Positions 4,324-54,812 of a stretch of DNA of 64,000 nucleotides are shown here, one piece after another. Origin of the DNA: Candidatus Woesearchaeota archaeon (GTDB lineage: Archaea > Nanobdellota > Nanobdellia > Woesearchaeales > ARS49); the NCBI GenBank assembly GCA_014729505.1, contig WJJS01000015.1:35300-99299 (forward strand). Reading direction: 5' to 3'. Numbering within the stretch: the first letter of the stretch is position 1; every line of letters starts with the position of its first letter. The notes beneath the pieces were generated by a model. It saw nothing but the letters and a program-made list of their open reading frames with translations. It was not told the origin of the DNA and made no database searches. The translations under genes and the position numbers were made by a program.

Positions 4324-5394
4324 ATGAGCTATTTCAAAGACTTTCTTGGAGCGGACGAGTCTTTGTTTCGCAACGAAGACGCGCTCGATTTAGAATGGTT
4401 ACCAAAAGTCATACCCTATCGTGAAGAACAACAACAACATATCGCGACATGTATTAAACCCCTCCTTGCAAAACGCAACGGAAAAAACCTGTTTATCTAC
4501 GGAGATCCAGGAATAGGAAAAACAGCGGCAACACGCTCACTGCTTCGTGATCTTGAAGAAACGACAGACGAAGTGGAAGGAGTCTACATCAATTGCTGGC
4601 AAAAAAACACCAGTTACAAAGTCTGCGTAGAAATCTGTCATCTGCTCGGATACAAATTTACACAAAACAAGAACACCGAAGAAATCTTTGCAATCATCAA
4701 AAACATCGTCAACAAAAAAGCAGCAGTGTTCGTATTTGACGAAACAGACAAAATAGAAGACTTTGACTTTCTCTACAGTATACTCAACGATATCTATCGT
4801 AAAACAGTCATCGTCATCACCAACTACAAAGAATGGCTTGGCAGTCTTGAACCGCGCATACGCAGCCGTCTCATGCCAGACATGCTCGAATTCAAAAAAT
4901 ACAGCGTCAACGAAATAGAAGGCATACTCAAACAACGAATAGACTACGCCTTTGTGCCAGGAGTATGGACTGGGCCGCTTATACGGCGCATCGCAGAAAA
5001 AACAGCGACGGTAGGAGATATCCGTGCAGGCATATACCTCCTGCGACAAACAGGCATGCTCGCAGACAATGAGGGATCAAAAAAGATTACCAACGAACAT
5101 GTAGAAGCCACGCTTGCAAAACTCGACGAACAAGGCATACAAAAACCAATGGATCTCGATGAAGAATCGCGCAACATCTTAACAGTCATCAAAGAACTCA
5201 GTCCGCGAAAAATAGGAGACTTATTTAGCGCGTACAAAGAAAAAGGTGGCGGAGCAACATACAAAACCTTCCAAAGAAAGATTGCCAAACTCGAAAAAGC
5301 AAAACTTATTTCTACGAACAAGATCATTGGTGGCAAAGAAGGAACAACAACAGTGATCACGTATGGTCGAGCAAAAACGTTAAGCGATTTCTAA
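4324..5394 (+). CDS. cdc6: Orc1/Cdc6 replication initiator
   Basis: AAA+ Walker A GDPGIGKT, Walker B VFVFDETD, C-terminal winged-helix region; archaeal Orc1/Cdc6 length and layout. Confidence 0.9.
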   Translation: MSYFKDFLGADESLFRNEDALDLEWLPKVIPYREEQQQHIATCIKPLLAKRNGKNLFIYGDPGIGKTAATRSLLRDLEETTDEVEGVYINCWQKNTSYKVCVEICHLLGYKFTQNKNTEEIFAIIKNIVNKKAAVFVFDETDKIEDFDFLYSILNDIYRKTVIVITNYKEWLGSLEPRIRSRLMPDMLEFKKYSVNEIEGILKQRIDYAFVPGVWTGPLIRRIAEKTATVGDIRAGIYLLRQTGMLADNEGSKKITNEHVEATLAKLDEQGIQKPMDLDEESRNILTVIKELSPRKIGDLFSAYKEKGGGATYKTFQRKIAKLEKAKLISTNKIIGGKEGTTTVITYGRAKTLSDF

Positions 5395-11034: not shown

Positions 11035-11241
11035 GTCGGAGTCTGGATTTTCTCCAGGACAGCGTCAAGCAGAGCTTGACTGGCCCCGGTTCAAATCATT
11101 ATAACAGAAAAATTTGAGCGCTTATGCGCCCACAACGCCGTCGCCCGGATTTGAAACCAGGACAGCGTCAAGCAGAGCTTGACTGGTCCCGGTCCAAATC
11201 ATTATAACAGAAAAAGTGGTGACGCTCTCGCGTCATAGAAA
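11035..11241. repeat. two tandem ~105-bp units, each carrying a degenerate copy of the tRNA-Ser 3' end plus a conserved 56-bp core and a variable hairpin+T5
   Basis: 11138-11163 cgccgtcgcccggatttgaaaccagg matches the tRNA-Ser 3' end (11242-11266) for 20 nt then diverges; 11035-11058 is a more degraded copy; 56-bp cores 11059-11115 and 11160-11215 are near-identical (3 mismatches). Confidence 0.7.
11211..11235 (-). terminator. hairpin plus T5 tract immediately 3' of tRNA-Ser
   Basis: Minus-strand TGACGC-GAGA-GCGTCA hairpin followed by CCACTTTTT; a similar hairpin+T5 (GGGCGC ATAA GCGCTC + TTTTT) follows the second repeat unit. Confidence 0.4.
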
Positions 11242-11325
11242 CGCCGTCGCCCGGATTTGAACCGGGATATCCGTAAGGAAACCAGCTTAGCAGGCTGGCG
11301 CAGTACCAGGTTGTGCCACGACGGC
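11242..11325 (-). tRNA. tRNA-Ser (anticodon GCU), class II with long variable arm
   Basis: Manual fold: acceptor GCCGTCG/CGACGGC, D stem GCA/TGC, anticodon stem CCAGC/GCTGG with loop CTGCTAA, variable stem-loop TCC-TTAC-GGA, T arm CCCGG-TTCAAAT-CCGGG, discriminator G; no encoded CCA. Confidence 0.75.
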
Positions 11326-11404
11326 AATGTACGACAAAGAAAGACAAATGGTTTTAAAGTTTTCTACTCGATAGGTTTTTAAGTATTGATGACTTACTGA
11401 AGTT

Positions 11405-23476: not shown

Positions 23477-23938
23477 ATGAGTTTGTTTCCAGAACGCAAA
23501 CTAGCCCGCTGCCCAGGCGGACAAGAATTTTTCGCCTATAACGGCGATCAGTACTCGAGCCTCTACGATCTTGCTCGAGGATTAGAACACATGGATGAGG
23601 GTGCCTTTGCACACCATGTCAACCACGAACGGAATGACTTTCACAATTGGGTGAAAGATGTGATAGGAGATGCCACGCTGGCTCACGGACTCCAGCATTT
23701 GCACACAAGAGAAAGCATGATGCGACGAGTCGTACTGCGCATTCGATTTCTAGAACTCATGAAAGATGCAGAAACCCGCGCACCAGTGACAAAAGTCAAA
23801 AAGAAAGAACCTGGCAAGAAAAGCACTGCAAAGAAAAAAACGGCAAAGAGCACAACAAAAAAACCAAAAAAGAAAACCACTACAAGCAAAGCAACAAAGA
23901 AAACGACAAAAAAAACAACAAAGAAGCGAAGGCGCTAG
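23477..23938 (+). CDS. hypothetical protein with C-terminal Lys-rich (histone H1-like) tail
   Basis: Globular N-terminal ~100 aa followed by a ~50-aa KKTxK-repeat tail; start overlaps the GH57 stop (coupled). Confidence 0.45.
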   Translation: MSLFPERKLARCPGGQEFFAYNGDQYSSLYDLARGLEHMDEGAFAHHVNHERNDFHNWVKDVIGDATLAHGLQHLHTRESMMRRVVLRIRFLELMKDAETRAPVTKVKKKEPGKKSTAKKKTAKSTTKKPKKKTTTSKATKKTTKKTTKKRRR

Positions 23939-40409: not shown

Positions 40410-40444
40410 ACGTTCTGCTGAGAAAAAAAGGTATAAAAAGATAA

Positions 40445-40556
40445 CGCCCCCGGCAGGATTTGAACCTGCGACCTGACGGTCTCTTTCAAAGCTTGCTTAG
40501 AGCAACAAGCGAAGCAAGATAACAGCCGTCCGCTCTAACCACTGAGCCACAGGGGC
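40445..40556 (-). tRNA. tRNA-Asn (GUU) with a 39-nt intron at the 37/38 position
   Basis: Manual fold: acceptor GCCCCTG/CGGGGGC, D arm GCTCAGTGGTTAGAGC, anticodon stem GACGG/CCGTC, loop CTGTTA|intron|A, T arm GCAGG-TTCAAAT-CCTGC; intron lies at plus 40481-40519. Confidence 0.8.
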
Positions 40557-40768
40557 ATGATCGCTTGAGCAAGTCAGAGATTTATAAACGTTTCGCGACA
40601 AGTCAGGCGGTGACTGCGCTTTTTGTCAGCTCTTGTTACAGACATCGCTGCATTATGCGCGACGCGCACCTGTTAGCACTTATTGCTACCATGTGCACTG
40701 CCCTGAAATGCGCCAGCTCCTTTGGAGTTGCACAATCCTTAAATAACGCGCTTGTCTTTTTTTGCGTT

Positions 40769-41371: not shown

Positions 41372-41474
41372 TAAATATCACAAGGAATTATCGAGTTAAA
41401 AGAACATTTTTTATACGATAATTTGAAGTCGAAGGCAAACTTTTTCTAAAAGTTTGATCAAAAGAAGTGAGTAT

Positions 41475-41491
41475 GGGGACTTGTAGTCCCC
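41475..41491 (-). terminator. hairpin immediately 3' of tRNA-Ile
   Basis: GGGGACT-TGT-AGTCCCC perfect 7-bp stem. Confidence 0.35.
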
Positions 41492-41500
41492 AACGCTCTA

Positions 41501-44600: not shown

Positions 44601-44766
44601 CACAGCACAAGACAATACTCAAGGCAGAAACGTTTATATACAGGTTTTTTGGTCAGTAATACACGCTGGAGTACAATCTTGACGTGACGGCAACTCTTTA
44701 TGTTATCCGAACAGATGGTCTTCGGTTCTCAAGGCGCGGTTGCTCACGACCGTGCTTATCACACAC

Positions 44767-44858
44767 GCCCGAGTAGTATAGTCTGGATAGTACGCACGGT
44801 TGCGGAAGAATACTTTTGCAAAATCCGTGTAACCGGGGTTCGAATCCTCGCTCGGGCA
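44767..44858 (+). tRNA. tRNA-Arg (GCG) with an 18-nt intron at 37/38
   Basis: Acceptor GCCCGAG/CTCGGGC, anticodon stem CACGG/CCGTG, loop TTGCGG|intron 44806-44823|T, T arm CGGGG-TTCGAAT-CCTCG, discriminator A. Confidence 0.7.
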
Positions 44859-45100
44859 TGTTTTACTTGTTAGATTTTCTTTGTTTTTCTATGGCTCGTC
44901 TTCGAACCCGGGTTCGTCACCTCGAAATCTGGGATTTCGCGGACCTCGAACACCTGTGGTGTTCAAGGAATCCTCGCTCGGGCATACTTACATTGCCTTT
45001 TGGGCTTTGTTTTGTTTTTCTATGGCTCGTCTTCGAACCCGGGTTCGTCACCTCGAAATCTGCGATTTCGCGAACCTGTTAGGCTGGAGAAAACACCAAT
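44859..45100. repeat. two tandem ~130-bp units downstream of tRNA-Arg, each with a ~70-bp conserved core (palindrome CGAACCCGGGTTCG plus a 7-bp-stem hairpin) and a partial copy of the tRNA-Arg 3' end
   Basis: Cores 44880-44945 and 45006-45075 differ at 2 positions; 44967-44983 gaatcctcgctcgggca duplicates the tRNA 3' end (44842-44858); hairpins CGAAATC-TGG-GATTTCG (44921-44938) and CGAAATC-TGC-GATTTCG (45051-45068). Confidence 0.7.
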
Positions 45101-45106
45101 ACAAAA

Positions 45107-46861
45107 TTAGGATCTGCCGCGCTGTTTGTTGTACAATTCTTCGACAAGATCAAGATCAGAACTATCCTCCACGCCGCGATCCGCACGCAACGCGAGAAAA
45201 CGAGGAAAACGCAACGCATAACCACTGGAATACGTAGGTGACTTTTGGATTTCCTCATACGCCACCTCGATGACGACAGAAGGATTCACTACCACTTCTT
45301 TACCGGTCTCTTTAACAATGAGAGGTTTGAGCAATTCAGTCATCTCTGCAAACGAAAAACCCTCCTCAGGCTTTTCCTTTAGACCCGTTGCTACACGTCC
45401 AATCTCAACAAGATCCCCATTGGCATTGCGCACAGCAATACGAAAACTACTAATCCAATGAGCGCGCTTACCCTCGCCCCATTCGCCACCGACAATAACA
45501 ACATCAAGCGTTTCCATCACAGGCTTAAGTTTTACACCATACCCTACGCGTTTGCCGGGCTTATACATTCCCTCGATGTTTTTAATCATTAACCCCTCAT
45601 TACCACTCTTTAACGATTCCTTGTAAAAATCATCAATCTTTTTTGCATCATCAGTGACAAGCTGATCAATCACACGAATCAAGGGTTTGTTCACCACAAC
45701 CTTAAGGAGTTTTTTGCGACGCTTCTCAAACGATTCTTTGATCAACGTTTTACCATCGAGATACATTAGATCGAACATGTTCAGTTCCACAGGCAATTTC
45801 TTAGCAAGCTCTTCAATATCATACTTACGTTTAATACGCTGAGAAATATTTTGAAACGGCAAATACTTGCCGGTCTTGACACTAAAACCGACCGCTTCAG
45901 AATCAATAATACAAGAAGAAACCTTAATGTTTTTTTTCACTAACGCAATGAGTTCAGGAAATTGCTTGGATACCTCTTCAAGACGACGAGTAAACATCCA
46001 CACCTTATCAGCATTTTTATGAATCTGCAAACGAAAACCATCAAACTTATACTCACAAGCAGCAGGACTACCAACCGTTTTCAACGCCTCTTCAATAGTC
46101 TCTGCCTTCGGATACAACATCACTTTAATAGGTTTACCCGGTGTAAGCTCAATAGAACTAAGACCTTTGCGACCTTTCTTTTCTAGTAATTCAGCAATCT
46201 TTGCAAAATCATTAGTCAAATTATACGCCTCTTCAACTTCATCAACGGCCTGCGCGTAATCTTTTCGATCAGTACCAAAGACAAGAGCATTCTTCTCCTT
46301 GTCATAAGACACCTGTATTTCCTTTGACAAATACGCCCAGACAATCGCATCACGCATCACCCCCTCGCCAAGACCAGTGCGCATATCACCAATGACCGTA
46401 CGCACCAAATACTTCGCTTCCAAAGGGCTGGCACTGGACAACAGTTCAGCAATAATCTTTACCTTACGATCAACAGTACCCTGACCTTCAAGCTCTGCAA
46501 GCTTTTCAAGATTCTTCTGCACTTTATCAACAGTAAGTGATTGTGAAAACAGTGTTGATTGAGTCTTCTTCTTAGTTAACTCTTCAGCAACCTCGCCAAT
46601 ATCGCCAAGCTTTTTCCAACGCATCTCAATCTTGGCAATGGATTCTCCTGTGCTCACACTCAATGCCTTAAGCAACAAACGGGAAGCCACGCCCATTTTA
46701 CGAGAATCCCAATCAGGAAACACCTTACCCTCAATAAGATAAATAATATGACAACCGCCCTTATGAGACTGCAAAAACTCGCCGACAAGAACAGTCTTTT
46801 CAAGACGTTTAGACGTCTTCTCAAGAGACGCATAGAGTTTTACAAGATCAAGATAGTCCAT
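45107..46861 (-). CDS. lig: ATP-dependent DNA ligase
   Basis: Adenylation motif KxDGxR (EYKFDGFRLQIHK), OB and DNA-binding domains; start at the internal Met (46861), since the ORF-track N-terminal extension is hydrophobic and non-ligase. Confidence 0.9.
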   Translation of the reverse strand: MDYLDLVKLYASLEKTSKRLEKTVLVGEFLQSHKGGCHIIYLIEGKVFPDWDSRKMGVASRLLLKALSVSTGESIAKIEMRWKKLGDIGEVAEELTKKKTQSTLFSQSLTVDKVQKNLEKLAELEGQGTVDRKVKIIAELLSSASPLEAKYLVRTVIGDMRTGLGEGVMRDAIVWAYLSKEIQVSYDKEKNALVFGTDRKDYAQAVDEVEEAYNLTNDFAKIAELLEKKGRKGLSSIELTPGKPIKVMLYPKAETIEEALKTVGSPAACEYKFDGFRLQIHKNADKVWMFTRRLEEVSKQFPELIALVKKNIKVSSCIIDSEAVGFSVKTGKYLPFQNISQRIKRKYDIEELAKKLPVELNMFDLMYLDGKTLIKESFEKRRKKLLKVVVNKPLIRVIDQLVTDDAKKIDDFYKESLKSGNEGLMIKNIEGMYKPGKRVGYGVKLKPVMETLDVVIVGGEWGEGKRAHWISSFRIAVRNANGDLVEIGRVATGLKEKPEEGFSFAEMTELLKPLIVKETGKEVVVNPSVVIEVAYEEIQKSPTYSSGYALRFPRFLALRADRGVEDSSDLDLVEELYNKQRGRS

Positions 46862-46913
46862 AATCGCTAACAATAATGATTTGTTAATAAGAGTTGTTGT
46901 TTGAAGAGTTGTC

Positions 46914-48473
46914 TTGATAGCAAAAGTTATTATAGTTGTCAGTCCCCTTAAGAAAAAAATGTTGCACAAAAGAGGTAGAACACAACATACTGCAGGAATA
47001 CTGTTCTTGTTTATCATCGTGCTAGCGGCAAATGCCGTCATAGCGTTTCATGGTTCTGAATGTACTACTTTGAGAGATTGTCCAACGTATTGTGTGCAAA
47101 ACATCATTTACGAAGAACCGTCCTGTGTTGAAGGGTATTGCGAATACCATGTTCGCCAGTGTCCTGATAACGAATATTGTTATGTAGAATCCTACTGGCC
47201 AACTGCAGTATACCCGGATCAGGCCCGAACAATTGGAGGACAGCCCTTTTTAAGCGCAACAGAAGCTACTTTTGCATGCAAACCTAAAACAGGAACCACT
47301 TGCGGCAATTTTCGCCTGAATGAGGGCGAAGAATGCGATCCTCCATCCGGATTAGGACAATCCGCTCAATGTGTCATCACTTTAGCAGATCAAGAATTTG
47401 TTGATGAGTACTATGATCAAAAGATGAGCTACACTGATAGCGTGGTATTAGCGCGAATGCAACATTACGGGTGTAATGATCAATGCAAATGCTTCGCTTT
47501 TTTCTGTGGTGACGAAATCGTATCAGATTTTCACACCGCTCCCTCGCCTAAGTACAGAGACGAACCATGGTACGATGAGGGCCTTGAGAAGGATATTGAT
47601 AATGAAGAATGCGACCCTCCGGGAACTCCCCACCCTACAAATCCATCACTGCGCTGTGATGCATACTGTCAATGGAATGAAATCGGTCAAGAATCAGTTC
47701 CGCCTGAATGTCATCGTAACGAAGACTGCGCAAAACGATTTCCTGCTAGGTGCAAAAACGAATTAGAGCTCACCATTCCCTGGTGTAAGGACAGTACATG
47801 CACACAAGGAATCTATGAATGTGATGATGATCAGGAATGCAGAAATGAACCAGAACCGGGATGTTATATCAGAGAATCGCGACCAGCAGAAGAACCTGCA
47901 ACAGAAACAACTTCTGCCTTCCCGCAAACAGTTGAAAAATTACAAAAAGCAATGAAAAACAATACCAAATTTTCTTACCGCGGCATAGAACTGCCCAAAG
48001 GAAACTATCAATTTATTATCACAGACAATGCTGCGTTCGTCGAAAGAAAGTATGCGCTTGACATCACAGAGACAAGCCTGTTATTAACCACCGGTCCTCG
48101 ATCCACTACTCTGGTAACCTCCTCAAAAGACGCGCAGCACGTTCTTGATCTCCTCAATGAAGAATCGTACTTTGTCGCAGCAACATTTGCACAACGGCAC
48201 TTTATACAGAATTCGCCACGTCTGGTCGACAATATAGAGGCAGCAATAACGCGAACACTATCTGCAAACCTCGAACGCCATCAAAACTCAATACTCAGAG
48301 CTCAAGACGTTCGCAATCAGGAACTCCCGCTAGCAAGCGCGGCGATAGAACAAACTACGAGTTTCATAAGAACTGCATTTACTCCCGTTCTCGCTCTGCC
48401 TGATCTTATTAGTAACATTCGCGAACAAATCCAATTACCTGCATCCTTAAGAGGGACTCATGAAATCATCTAA
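46914..48473 (+). CDS. secreted cysteine-rich protein with repeated GEECDPP motifs
   Basis: N-terminal hydrophobic signal/anchor; about 40 Cys; two ...EECDPP... repeats resembling the myxococcal cysteine-rich repeat. Confidence 0.5.
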   Translation: MIAKVIIVVSPLKKKMLHKRGRTQHTAGILFLFIIVLAANAVIAFHGSECTTLRDCPTYCVQNIIYEEPSCVEGYCEYHVRQCPDNEYCYVESYWPTAVYPDQARTIGGQPFLSATEATFACKPKTGTTCGNFRLNEGEECDPPSGLGQSAQCVITLADQEFVDEYYDQKMSYTDSVVLARMQHYGCNDQCKCFAFFCGDEIVSDFHTAPSPKYRDEPWYDEGLEKDIDNEECDPPGTPHPTNPSLRCDAYCQWNEIGQESVPPECHRNEDCAKRFPARCKNELELTIPWCKDSTCTQGIYECDDDQECRNEPEPGCYIRESRPAEEPATETTSAFPQTVEKLQKAMKNNTKFSYRGIELPKGNYQFIITDNAAFVERKYALDITETSLLLTTGPRSTTLVTSSKDAQHVLDLLNEESYFVAATFAQRHFIQNSPRLVDNIEAAITRTLSANLERHQNSILRAQDVRNQELPLASAAIEQTTSFIRTAFTPVLALPDLISNIREQIQLPASLRGTHEII

Positions 48474-54611: not shown

Positions 54612-54619
54612 TTTATAAA
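54612..54619 (+). promoter_or_regulatory. TATA box upstream of the tRNA-Gln leader / pseudo-tRNA
   Basis: TTTATAAA about 29 bp upstream of 54645; no comparable TATA directly upstream of the intact tRNA-Gln. Confidence 0.45.
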
Positions 54620-54644
54620 GGACGCAAGGGTTTTTTCGCACAAC

Positions 54645-54739
54645 AGTCCCGTAGTGTAGTGGTCCTGCGCAAATCTGCGATTTGCTGGTCTCGCCTCGCA
54701 AGCTCGGCAAGAAATCATCAGGCACTTCATTACAACAAC
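54645..54739 (+). pseudogene. truncated duplicate of the tRNA-Gln 5' part with a 47-nt insertion carrying a GCAAATC-TGC-GATTTGC hairpin (likely leader of the tRNA-Gln transcript)
   Basis: 54645-54664 is identical to tRNA-Gln positions 1-20 (plus 4 upstream nt); after the insert, AATCATCAGGCACTT matches tRNA-Gln 21-35 with 1 mismatch; no T arm or 3' acceptor. Confidence 0.6.
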
Positions 54740-54812
54740 AGTCCCGTAGTGTAGTGGTCAATCATCTGGCACTTTGGATGCTAGGACGGCGGTTCGAATC
54801 CGCCCGGGACTA
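54740..54812 (+). tRNA. tRNA-Gln (UUG)
   Basis: Acceptor AGTCCCG/CGGGACT, anticodon stem TGGCA/TGCTA, loop CTTTGGA, T arm GGCGG-TTCGAAT-CCGCC, discriminator A. Confidence 0.75.

Follow-up and report, generated by a model that had tools for sequence, protein, structure and literature searches.

Relics of tRNA ends in short arrays around a tRNA-Arg gene and other tRNA genes of Woesearchaeota

Partial copies of transfer RNA (tRNA) genes are normally read as the borders of large elements. The identity block of integrases that target tRNA genes is a direct repeat that begins in the T loop or T stem and ends shortly beyond the 3' end of the gene, and such blocks were reportedly described by Williams in 2002. 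The group to which Nanoarchaeum belongs is where split tRNA genes were first found. Among the archaeal examples, tRNA-end direct repeats form the integration borders of SSV1 and pNOB8 (PMC3293823), repeats of 44 bp lie around SSV1 or the 21-kb PYG1 (PMC9897764), and seven cases, with elements of 9-23 kb, come from 20 genomes of Thermococcaceae (PMC9897764). In Caldiarchaeum a 5' fragment of tRNA-Thr lies 1.8 kb upstream of the gene, with a recombinase between the two (Sugahara et al. 2012, PMC3293823). Here we analyze a stretch of 64,000 nucleotides from a Candidatus Woesearchaeota archaeon (contig WJJS01000015.1, positions 35,300 to 99,299), termed the window below, and in particular the repeat array that follows its tRNA-Arg(GCG) gene, where partial tRNA copies occur on a scale of ~100 nt and without element genes.

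The pieces around this gene and around many tRNA genes of related genomes are of tRNA origin, have a fixed polarity and loop-centred breakpoints, form complementary halves in some relatives and are frequent in Woesearchaeota. Judged from the alignments, the units of the array, here called the Arg units, are built from the T arm of tRNA-Arg itself and are not an independent repeat family. With moderate confidence, we regard them as relics of recurrent insertion or duplication of tRNA ends inside the gene, together with one tandem duplication at this locus.

An earlier note, made from the sequence alone, had described two tandem units after tRNA-Arg, and both are present: they form an 81-nt repeat with 90% identity and a spacing of 131 nt, of which a 62-nt core has 2 mismatches. 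The divergence between the copies is uneven, with 2 mismatches in the last 62 nt as against 6 in the first 19 (p=0.0017), and alignment of the 131-nt periods gives identity at 18/18 positions of the tRNA 3' end, at about half of the T-rich stretch and at 60/62 of the core. The spacers of the two periods resemble each other with a score of 65, shuffled sequences reaching at most 15. The perfect 14-bp palindrome and the hairpin with a 7-bp stem that the note had placed in the core were each found in both units (Table 1), and a second hairpin (44944-44968) is absent from that note. The copy of the tRNA 3' end is exact, as had been reported, but it lies at 44968-44985, one base off the 44967-44983 given before. 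Identity in this 18-nt repeat (44842-44859 / 44968-44985) begins within the T loop, and the insert between the tRNA and the copy measures 109 nt. Within the window a 29-nt unit core has 2 matches versus 0.00 expected, and the 17-mer of the tRNA 3' end has 2 versus 0.13 expected with 3 mismatches allowed. The motif AAATCTGNGATTT of the hairpin at 44923-44939 has exactly three sites in the window, namely both Arg units and the 5' relic of tRNA-Gln. Tandem Repeats Finder reported neither the Arg array nor the comparable array at tRNA-Ser, probably because each holds fewer than two full copies. The distal motif common to these two arrays reads CTGGAGAAAA(Y)(M)C(M)A on the tRNA-sense strand, with 2 matches versus 0.06 expected.

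Alignment of the unit to tRNA-Arg recovers TTCGAACCCGGGTT, in which the T stem and loop are copied in antisense and which is complementary to the tRNA sequence AACCGGGGTTCGAA at 13/14 positions (93%), and a sense copy of the T arm, AACCCGGGTTCGTCACCTCG, which matches AACCGGGGTTCGAATCCTCG at 16/20 positions (80%; tRNA positions 65-84). The 14-bp palindrome at 44903-44916 is the head-to-head junction of the antisense and sense T-arm copies. The exact 18-mer is directly preceded by GGTGTTCAAGG, a decayed T stem and T loop 5' half that pairs with its own complement in a hairpin (44944-44968). By this alignment the Arg 3' fragment is the end of a decayed copy of the 3' portion of the tRNA, and the probable start of the segment duplicated at Arg lies close to the anticodon stem, at its 3' strand. 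The units look locus-specific because the T-arm motif tracks the T-arm sequence of each tRNA. Five of the seven short-range direct-repeat families in the window lie at tRNA-Arg, tRNA-Ser and tRNA-Gln.

For a wider view, the window and 80 fetched Woesearchaeota loci that carry the neighbouring DNA ligase gene were surveyed, with tRNAs called by ARAGORN in intron mode (n=85 tRNA genes); labels such as L004 and L007 denote the related loci. An exact self-copy of at least 13 nt lies within 400 nt of 19/85 tRNA genes, versus 27/1645 shuffled tRNA/flank pairs (Fisher p=2.6e-14), and no self-copy was found beyond 400 nt within flanks of ~6 kb on either side. Counted within 200 nt, 19-20/85 tRNA genes have such copies. 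When 2 mismatches are allowed, 20 tRNA genes have a downstream 3' fragment at a distance of 46-161 nt, including 11 tRNA-Arg(GCG) loci, or ~12/30 with L014, whose contig ends before the fragment. Polarity is strict, with all upstream copies being 5' parts and all downstream copies 3' parts. The identity block starts inside the T arm in 18/20 cases (p=6e-9), for the most part at positions 57-59 of the T loop or where the T stem ends, and the upstream relics stop at positions 20-32 or hold an insert there; such breakpoints fall at positions which we take to be those of the non-canonical introns and split sites of Thermoproteales (20-26, 32-38 and 57-59). The length of the duplication varies from 14 to 24 nt. 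At 17/20 loci the spacer that separates the copies bears no relation to what follows the distal one, and thus a pattern of insertion fits better than simple tandem duplication; the repeated spacer of the tandem form is seen only at window Arg, window Ser and L025, and in L025 two different unit types are stacked.

The antisense T-arm copy is likewise tied to the fragments, being present at 8/20 loci that have a fragment versus 0/62 that do not (p=3.5e-6). In the other genomes, too, the T-arm motif follows the resident tRNA, and the hairpin stems differ between loci and genomes. The order antisense T arm, hairpin 1, hairpin 2 and 3' end is found in the window, L005, L008, L025 and L080, with differing stems. 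Parts of the spacer that are not tRNA-derived are common to loci only in L008/L014, in addition to one hairpin in L010/L065, and a comparison of the spacers with 2 kb on either side gave no matches of at least 11 nt beyond chance except the tandem copies. Scans of genome and metagenome collections with exact tRNA-Arg patterns yielded no match, and a metagenome scan based on the ligase returned only distant loci without the tRNA.

Relics on both sides of the same gene, seen in L007, L086 and L049 (Table 1), represent two halves of one gene, and they are exactly complementary in L007 and L086. When joined, the halves of L007 make up a valid tRNA-Arg(GCG), and 3 compensatory pair changes, in the acceptor, anticodon and T stems, distinguish it from the inner gene; L007 is the only case in which the joined halves are valid. 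In the predicted minimum-energy fold of this region the outer tRNA encloses the inner one. The simplest reading of L007 is that an intact copy with short flanks would have been inserted in the resident gene at the border of D loop and D stem. The inner tRNA-Arg genes of L007 (297-370) and L086 (5755-5828) also stand in inverted repeats, with the order GGGAAATAAA, 5 nt, tRNA and TTTATTTCCC in the former and GAAAATCAA, 6 nt, tRNA and TTGATTTTC in the latter; these repeats of 9-10 bp would lengthen the acceptor stem of the precursor, and they are not a bulge-helix-bulge (BHB) motif. In L022 the relic upstream of tRNA-Arg (4924-4999) comprises positions 9-24 and 28-57; its anticodon stem has a compensatory change and its anticodon is altered from GCG to GCA, which suggests that this copy was once under tRNA constraint.

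In the window, the 40 nt that precede tRNA-Arg contain no AT-rich box, and the TATA-box-like TTTATATA is the only promoter-like element upstream; the gene would appear to be made with a leader of ~100 nt. At the site orthologous to the decayed acceptor/D-arm relic (44651-44674), L004 has a 28-nt near-exact 5' copy, corresponding to positions 1-28 including 10 nt of 5' flank, which is followed by a 55-nt insert and then by positions 29-38. The leader block that directly precedes the gene is identical at 32/38 positions between the window and L004, whereas the 4-fold sites of the ligase are 29% identical. The outer 5' acceptor strand in the window is decayed to an extent that makes pairing impossible. 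On these alignments tRNA-Arg is bounded on both sides by its own pieces, and it looks like an older, more decayed nest, with a 5' relic reaching to about position 43 and a downstream part from about position 44 to the end.

The ligase of L004 is 63% identical to that of the window, and this locus retains the synteny of helicase, methyltransferase, tRNA-Arg and ligase. A two-unit arrangement conserved in relatives, which the earlier note had considered the mark of a fixed structural or terminator element, was not seen: among the nearest relatives L004 is without downstream units, and L005 has two units of different sequence. Neither were further copies of the unit, for which the note had proposed a search, found in the window, in 86 fetched loci or in viral contigs. 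The tRNA-Arg genes of L008, L014, L055 and L019 are identical, and a homologous unit follows those of L008 and L014; L014 has the unit and L055 has none, despite 90% identity of their ligases and identical tRNAs. In L019 and L022 the tRNA-Arg cassette (promoter and gene, ~125 nt) is inverted versus the neighbouring gene, relative to L008. The difference between L014 and L055 and the inversions of the cassette indicate that units are gained and lost fast, and that tRNA genes are synteny breakpoints. Between L008 and L055 the downstream synteny stops exactly at the tRNA 3' end. The unit core shared by L008 and L014 is 82% identical over 51 nt versus 43% at the ligase 4-fold sites (p=9e-9).

Two other tRNA genes of the window have comparable surroundings. 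The layout of tRNA, unit, 3' fragment and unit, which the earlier note had also drawn for tRNA-Ser, does recur there, with a 22-nt 3' copy and a 59-nt repeat. The Ser array (11043-11240, minus strand) runs twice through a terminator-like hairpin with a T-run, an antisense T arm GATTTGGACCGGGA, a hairpin of 7 bp with a 3-nt loop, and a sense T arm with the 3' end. It closes with a third, decayed T-arm-like end, CCTGGAGAAAATCCAGACTCCGAC, which has a compensatory change in the stem, and its two terminator hairpins differ in sequence and both pair. At tRNA-Gln the relics lie upstream (54640-54739), as a mirror image of Arg and Ser. Directly after the TATA box, positions 1-20 are copied exactly, together with 5 nt of flank; a 47-nt insert comes next, then positions 21-35 with 1 mismatch, and then the real gene. 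The insert carries the hairpin GCAAATC-TGC-GATTTGC, with the motif AAATCTGCGATTT the same as in Arg unit 2, and tRNA-Gln would be made with a leader of ~95 nt.

We propose that the live gene would stand in a shell of dead self-pieces, with a decayed 5' part upstream and direct and inverted 3' copies downstream. DNA with a replacement end of the same tRNA would have been repeatedly inserted or duplicated within the resident gene, at the T arm in 3'-side events and at the D loop or anticodon region in 5'-side events; in some relatives, L007 and L086 for example, the insert would have included a whole gene copy. Each event would have regenerated one intact gene and pushed the former end outward to decay. 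In the window the 3' module (which starts near tRNA position 39 and takes in the 3' end and flank, with a period of 126-131 nt) would then have been duplicated once more in tandem, this order of events being one that we infer from the relics, and certain patches would have been kept alike by gene conversion or selection. As for the agent, we lean towards recombination or repair acting on the structured T and D arms, in preference to a classical element with its own integrase, and candidate routes would be fold-back synthesis, template switching, or illegitimate joining to sister or foreign DNA that is anchored by homology. Probably most of the array lies beyond the oligo-T terminator and is not required for any function; some parts look conserved, and thus a function may exist.

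Several points weigh against this reconstruction. Our searches identified no agent of insertion or duplication. The survey is confined to ligase-linked loci, among which tRNA-Arg is over-represented, and it is based on ARAGORN intron-mode calls in which a few isotypes are mislabelled, with isotype counts consequently approximate (the cases come from L015, L031 and L016: 'tRNA-Stop(tta)' is a tRNA-Gln with an intron, and a 'tRNA-Ala(tgc)' of L016 has a GCG anticodon arm). The spacer is not copied from the nearby 2 kb, unlike the prediction of purely local template switching. In L010, L021, L025, L049 and L080 a T-run comes after the distal fragment and not after the live tRNA, and the unit is probably co-transcribed with the tRNA there. 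Divergence is also mosaic, as the window cores (2/62 versus 6/19), the L008/L014 core and the leader block (32/38) are conserved, which points to selection or to gene conversion with the live gene; given these conserved patches, a view of the array as pure debris may be too simple.

One alternative is that the arrays are scars of integrase-bearing plasmids or viruses whose attB ran from the T loop to the 3' end of tRNA-Arg, which supplied a copy of this segment themselves and which have been almost fully deleted, or of miniature non-autonomous elements moved in trans. Repeats of the attL/attR type and ~100 nt of element arm would be what is left, and repeated integration would have stacked the units. 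We regard this as possible but unlikely. The 14-24-nt repeats from the T loop or stem to past the 3' end do resemble an integrase identity block, and the A-B-A-C insertion pattern at 17/20 loci, the T-run after the distal copy in several relatives, as expected of the original gene end, the two stacked unit types of L025 and the recurrence of motifs across tRNAs and genomes (the L010/L065 hairpin, and AAATCTGNGATTT at Arg and Gln) all accord with it. Yet a scan of all loci for tyrosine-recombinase catalytic motifs detected no integrase-like protein beside the 85 tRNAs; it returned just two Xer-like proteins, in L033 and L041, neither next to a relic-bearing tRNA, and in a Pfam overview of the 74 window open reading frames (ORFs) the 25 commonest families, out of 67, included no integrase. 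None of the 20 inserts exceeds 161 nt, and no kb-sized one lies within ~6 kb on either side, whereas documented archaeal cases span 1.8-23 kb, and a DNA circle of ~100-130 bp is physically awkward. Moreover, the antisense copies track the resident T arm, which attP arms need not do, and the insertion site in L007 shares no block of identity with the junctions of the insert. When viral contigs were searched, the core, the att-like 17-mer and a generic Arg 3' end gave zero or chance coding matches, in collections that are poor in Woesearchaeota plasmids and viruses; 3 matches of the 17-mer and 1 of the generic Arg 3' end, considered as candidates for attP on a virus or plasmid, are chance hits in high-GC phage genes without a tRNA.

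A functional module is an improbable explanation. It supposes that the antisense T arm, the hairpins, the 3' copy and the relic-like 5' leader are kept for action on the pre-tRNA or on DNA; for example, a read-through antisense T arm would pair with the real T arm while the distal copy serves as an alternative acceptor strand, and such a module could act in quality control or as a processing scaffold, terminator backup or decoy. The conservation of the L008/L014 core, of the leader and of the window cores (97%, with diverged flanks) speaks for it, as do the same architecture with different stems in the window, L005, L008, L025 and L080, a U.G pair in the tRNA-Gln helix of L021 that is valid only on tRNA-sense RNA, and the lack of a T-run between tRNA and unit in some relatives. 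In the predicted minimum-energy fold of 44645-44985 (z=-3.6) the 5' strand of the tRNA pairs with the distal fragment and the T arm with the antisense copy. However, the predicted fold of the unit RNA alone is not unusually stable (z=-1.2), and strong T-runs precede the unit in the window. Units are easily lost (L055, L004, L019) and occur at only ~40% of tRNA-Arg loci. Nearly all stems are perfect Watson-Crick helices with 3-4-nt loops, which suit young DNA palindromes better than old RNA helices, and the likeness of stems between genomes is explicable by derivation from a conserved T arm, just as the conservation could reflect gene conversion with the live tRNA. A hand check found no BHB motif at the T-loop inserts of the window and L080 or at the D-loop insert of L007, the 4-bp helix being missing at the checked borders (H2 is TCAA versus the required AACC or TCCA), and in Rfam only the tRNA itself passes, other matches (E 0.06-8) being far below the gathering scores. 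The earlier note had viewed the loop-less palindrome as a possible binding site for a dimeric protein or recombinase, and an independent tandem repeat bound in this way would indeed present the perfect 14-bp palindrome twice; a recombinase acting at T-arm-like palindromes is conceivable. We consider this view very improbable, as the palindrome is explained by sense and antisense copies of the T arm and varies with each tRNA, no further copies turned up in the window or in 86 loci, and no candidate protein is encoded nearby. What survives of it is recombination, which stays plausible; action of one sequence-specific protein is disfavoured by the varying stems. It is scarcely credible that the array is an artefact of mis-assembly or a small protein gene: two plus-strand ORFs, 44816-45082 (88 aa) and 44881-45237 (118 aa), do overlap the units, but in the ATG frame both mismatches between the units are non-synonymous, and the ORFs run into the tRNA or the ligase. 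This architecture is also shared by dozens of assemblies made independently in different studies, and the repeated pieces are shorter than assembler k-mers.

Other candidate agents and families were also tried. Terminal inverted repeats at the unit ends, a target duplication of fixed length and a casposon-like layout were looked for and not found; insertion of a miniature inverted-repeat transposable element (MITE), an insertion sequence or a casposon was rejected, given the missing terminal repeats, the variable duplication of 14-24 nt and the lack of copies elsewhere. Neither Ser nor Gln yielded a minihelix, with a 5' acceptor strand within the unit, the case for a tRNA-like gene on the other strand of the unit was not convincing, and no C/D or H/ACA boxes were seen in the units. 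A priming site on the minus strand, of the primer-binding type, lacks the TGG needed for pairing with CCA. A cause in strand or replication direction was set aside, as tRNA-Arg on the plus strand and tRNA-Ser on the minus strand both have 3' relics, and GC skew was uninformative.

Rfam detects six tRNAs in the window, tRNA-Arg among them; default ARAGORN misses this gene and calls it only when the intron search is on. The T-rich stretch that follows is its probable terminator, given that oligo-T terminators are known in archaea. The tRNA-Arg and DNA ligase genes converge, as the earlier note had them. The ligase is 100% identical to a Candidatus Woesearchaeota protein at NCBI, the next homologue having 64% identity, and by Pfam the genes around the array, a methyltransferase and the ligase, are of housekeeping type. 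Elsewhere in the window, tRNA-Asn(GTT), with a 39-nt intron (40445-40556, minus strand; Rfam 59.9 bits), is missed by default ARAGORN, found in intron mode at 40444-40557, and has no relic nearby. At 41410-41500 (minus strand) a hairpin of 7 bp with a 3-nt loop, GGGGACT-ACA-AGTCCCC, and a T-run come after tRNA-Ile, and ~75 nt downstream a T-arm-like CGACTTCAAATTATCG matches the T arm of this tRNA at 12/15 positions, which may be a very old relic or chance. The ORF at 23477-23938 holds an A-rich imperfect tandem repeat (23800-23925; periods 12 and 24, ~70% matches), probably a low-complexity protein tail rich in Lys and Asn.

Table 1. Features of the tRNA-Arg locus, of the tRNA-Ser and tRNA-Gln loci of the window, and of three related loci with relics on both sides of tRNA-Arg
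Feature	Positions	Strand	Basis or remark
TATA-box-like TTTATATA	44633-44641	+	read from sequence; 126 nt before the gene
Strongly decayed acceptor/D-arm relic GGTCAGTAATACACGCTGGAGTAC	44651-44674	+	hand alignment to AGTAGTATAGTCTGGATAGTAC; weak alone
Leader block with anticodon-arm-like hairpin GCGCGGT...ACCGTGC (44733-44754)	44727-44766	+	GCGCGGTTGC compared with tRNA GCACGGTTGC
Live tRNA-Arg(GCG) gene	44767-44858	+	Rfam RF00005, 49.2 bits; ARAGORN with intron search
Canonical intron of tRNA-Arg, 18 nt	44807-44824	+	ARAGORN intron mode
T-rich stretch (TTTT, TTTTCTTTGTTTTT)	44859-44895	+	read from sequence
Repeat copy 1 (unit core)	44866-44946	+	direct-repeat search and alignment
Antisense T-arm copy abutting older sense copy	44901-44914; 44905-44924	+	repeat search, local alignment
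Perfect 14-bp palindrome CGAACCCGGGTTCG	44903-44916 and 45034-45047		inverted-repeat search
Hairpin CGAAATC-TGG/TGC-GATTTCG, 7-bp stem, 3-nt loop	44923-44939 and 45054-45070		inverted-repeat search
Second hairpin CCTCGAACACC-TGT-GGTGTTCAAGG; 7-bp core GAACACC-TGT-GGTGTTC	44944-44968; core 44947-44963	+	inverted-repeat search, fold
Exact 18-nt copy of tRNA-Arg end, GAATCCTCGCTCGGGCAT	44968-44985	+	17 tRNA bases and the next T
Repeat copy 2	44997-45077	+	direct/inverted-repeat search and alignment; no intact 3' fragment after it
Distal end motif CTGGAGAAAACACCA	45084-45098	+	recurs at the distal end of the tRNA-Ser array, 11043-11057 (-)
ATP-dependent DNA ligase gene, convergent, bordering the array	45107-47041	-	Pfam DNA_ligase_A_N/M/C
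tRNA-Ser(GCT)	11241-11326	-	
Exact 22-nt copy of tRNA-Ser 3' end	11134-11155	-	
Ser 59-nt repeat, 97% identity	11054-11112 / 11157-11215	-	
tRNA-Gln(TTG)	54740-54812		TATA box 54612-54619
L007 relics	tRNA positions 1-23 upstream; 24-74 downstream		local alignment
L086 relics	tRNA positions 4-24 upstream; 25-57 and 58-74 downstream (53-nt insert in T loop)		local alignment
L049 relics	tRNA positions 1-32 upstream; 52-74 downstream		local alignment

The value of these observations lies more in the lineage-wide pattern than in the Arg locus itself. About a fifth of the sampled tRNA genes of an archaeal order are affected, and in two genomes the old gene is split exactly around the new one. Such loci offer concrete, datable intermediates for the debated origin of split and intron-bearing tRNA genes, and the relics may record how tRNA genes break and renew. 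They also show that micro-rearrangements and synteny breaks in very small genomes concentrate at tRNA genes, and they serve as a warning for annotation that genomes of this kind commonly contain pseudo-tRNA pieces, long tRNA leaders and T-arm palindromes. A more speculative idea, to which we assign a low likelihood, is that Woesearchaeota possess a dedicated, still active process that rebuilds tRNA genes from inside, with a fresh end or whole copy placed at the T or D loop, and that the relic modules have been partly exapted as leader and trailer structures; were this true, the loci would be living intermediates toward split and disrupted tRNA genes in DPANN archaea. The literature searched contained no description of this pattern in DPANN archaea, which is not proof of novelty.

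Among the known systems, casposons and transposons with their target-site duplications, and MITEs, are similar in that the tRNA 3' end is duplicated around a short insert; they differ in that the duplication described here, of 14-24 nt, varies in length, and that the arrays are without terminal inverted repeats, casposase, transposase or copies elsewhere. Local tandem duplication with concerted evolution, together with template switching at quasi-palindromes and fold-back inverted duplication, has in common with the present loci the head-to-tail repetition of window Arg and Ser, the direct-inverted-direct order of T arms, the perfect stems with 3-nt loops and events of less than 200 nt. In contrast to these processes, most loci in relatives have no second copy of the spacer, the spacer does not derive from nearby DNA, and the breakpoints are restricted to tRNA loops. 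The disruption model for Caldiarchaeum and the split and multi-intron tRNA genes of Nanoarchaeum and Thermoproteales likewise involve a 5' fragment upstream and halves separated by inserted DNA, but here the halves are dead or dying around an intact copy, and no BHB motif, complementary leader and trailer for trans-splicing, or recombinase in the insert was found. The provirus and plasmid scars of SSV1, pNOB8, PYG1 and Thermococcales resemble the present loci in having a partial tRNA end in direct orientation beside a regenerated intact gene, with identity from the loop past the 3' end. They differ in their interval, which is 1.8-23 kb as against 46-161 nt here, where integrase and element genes are absent and antisense T-arm copies, snap-back hairpins and nested halves are present. 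They also differ in frequency, with ~22% of tRNA genes affected here as compared to less than 1% in Thermococcaceae by our own rough estimate.

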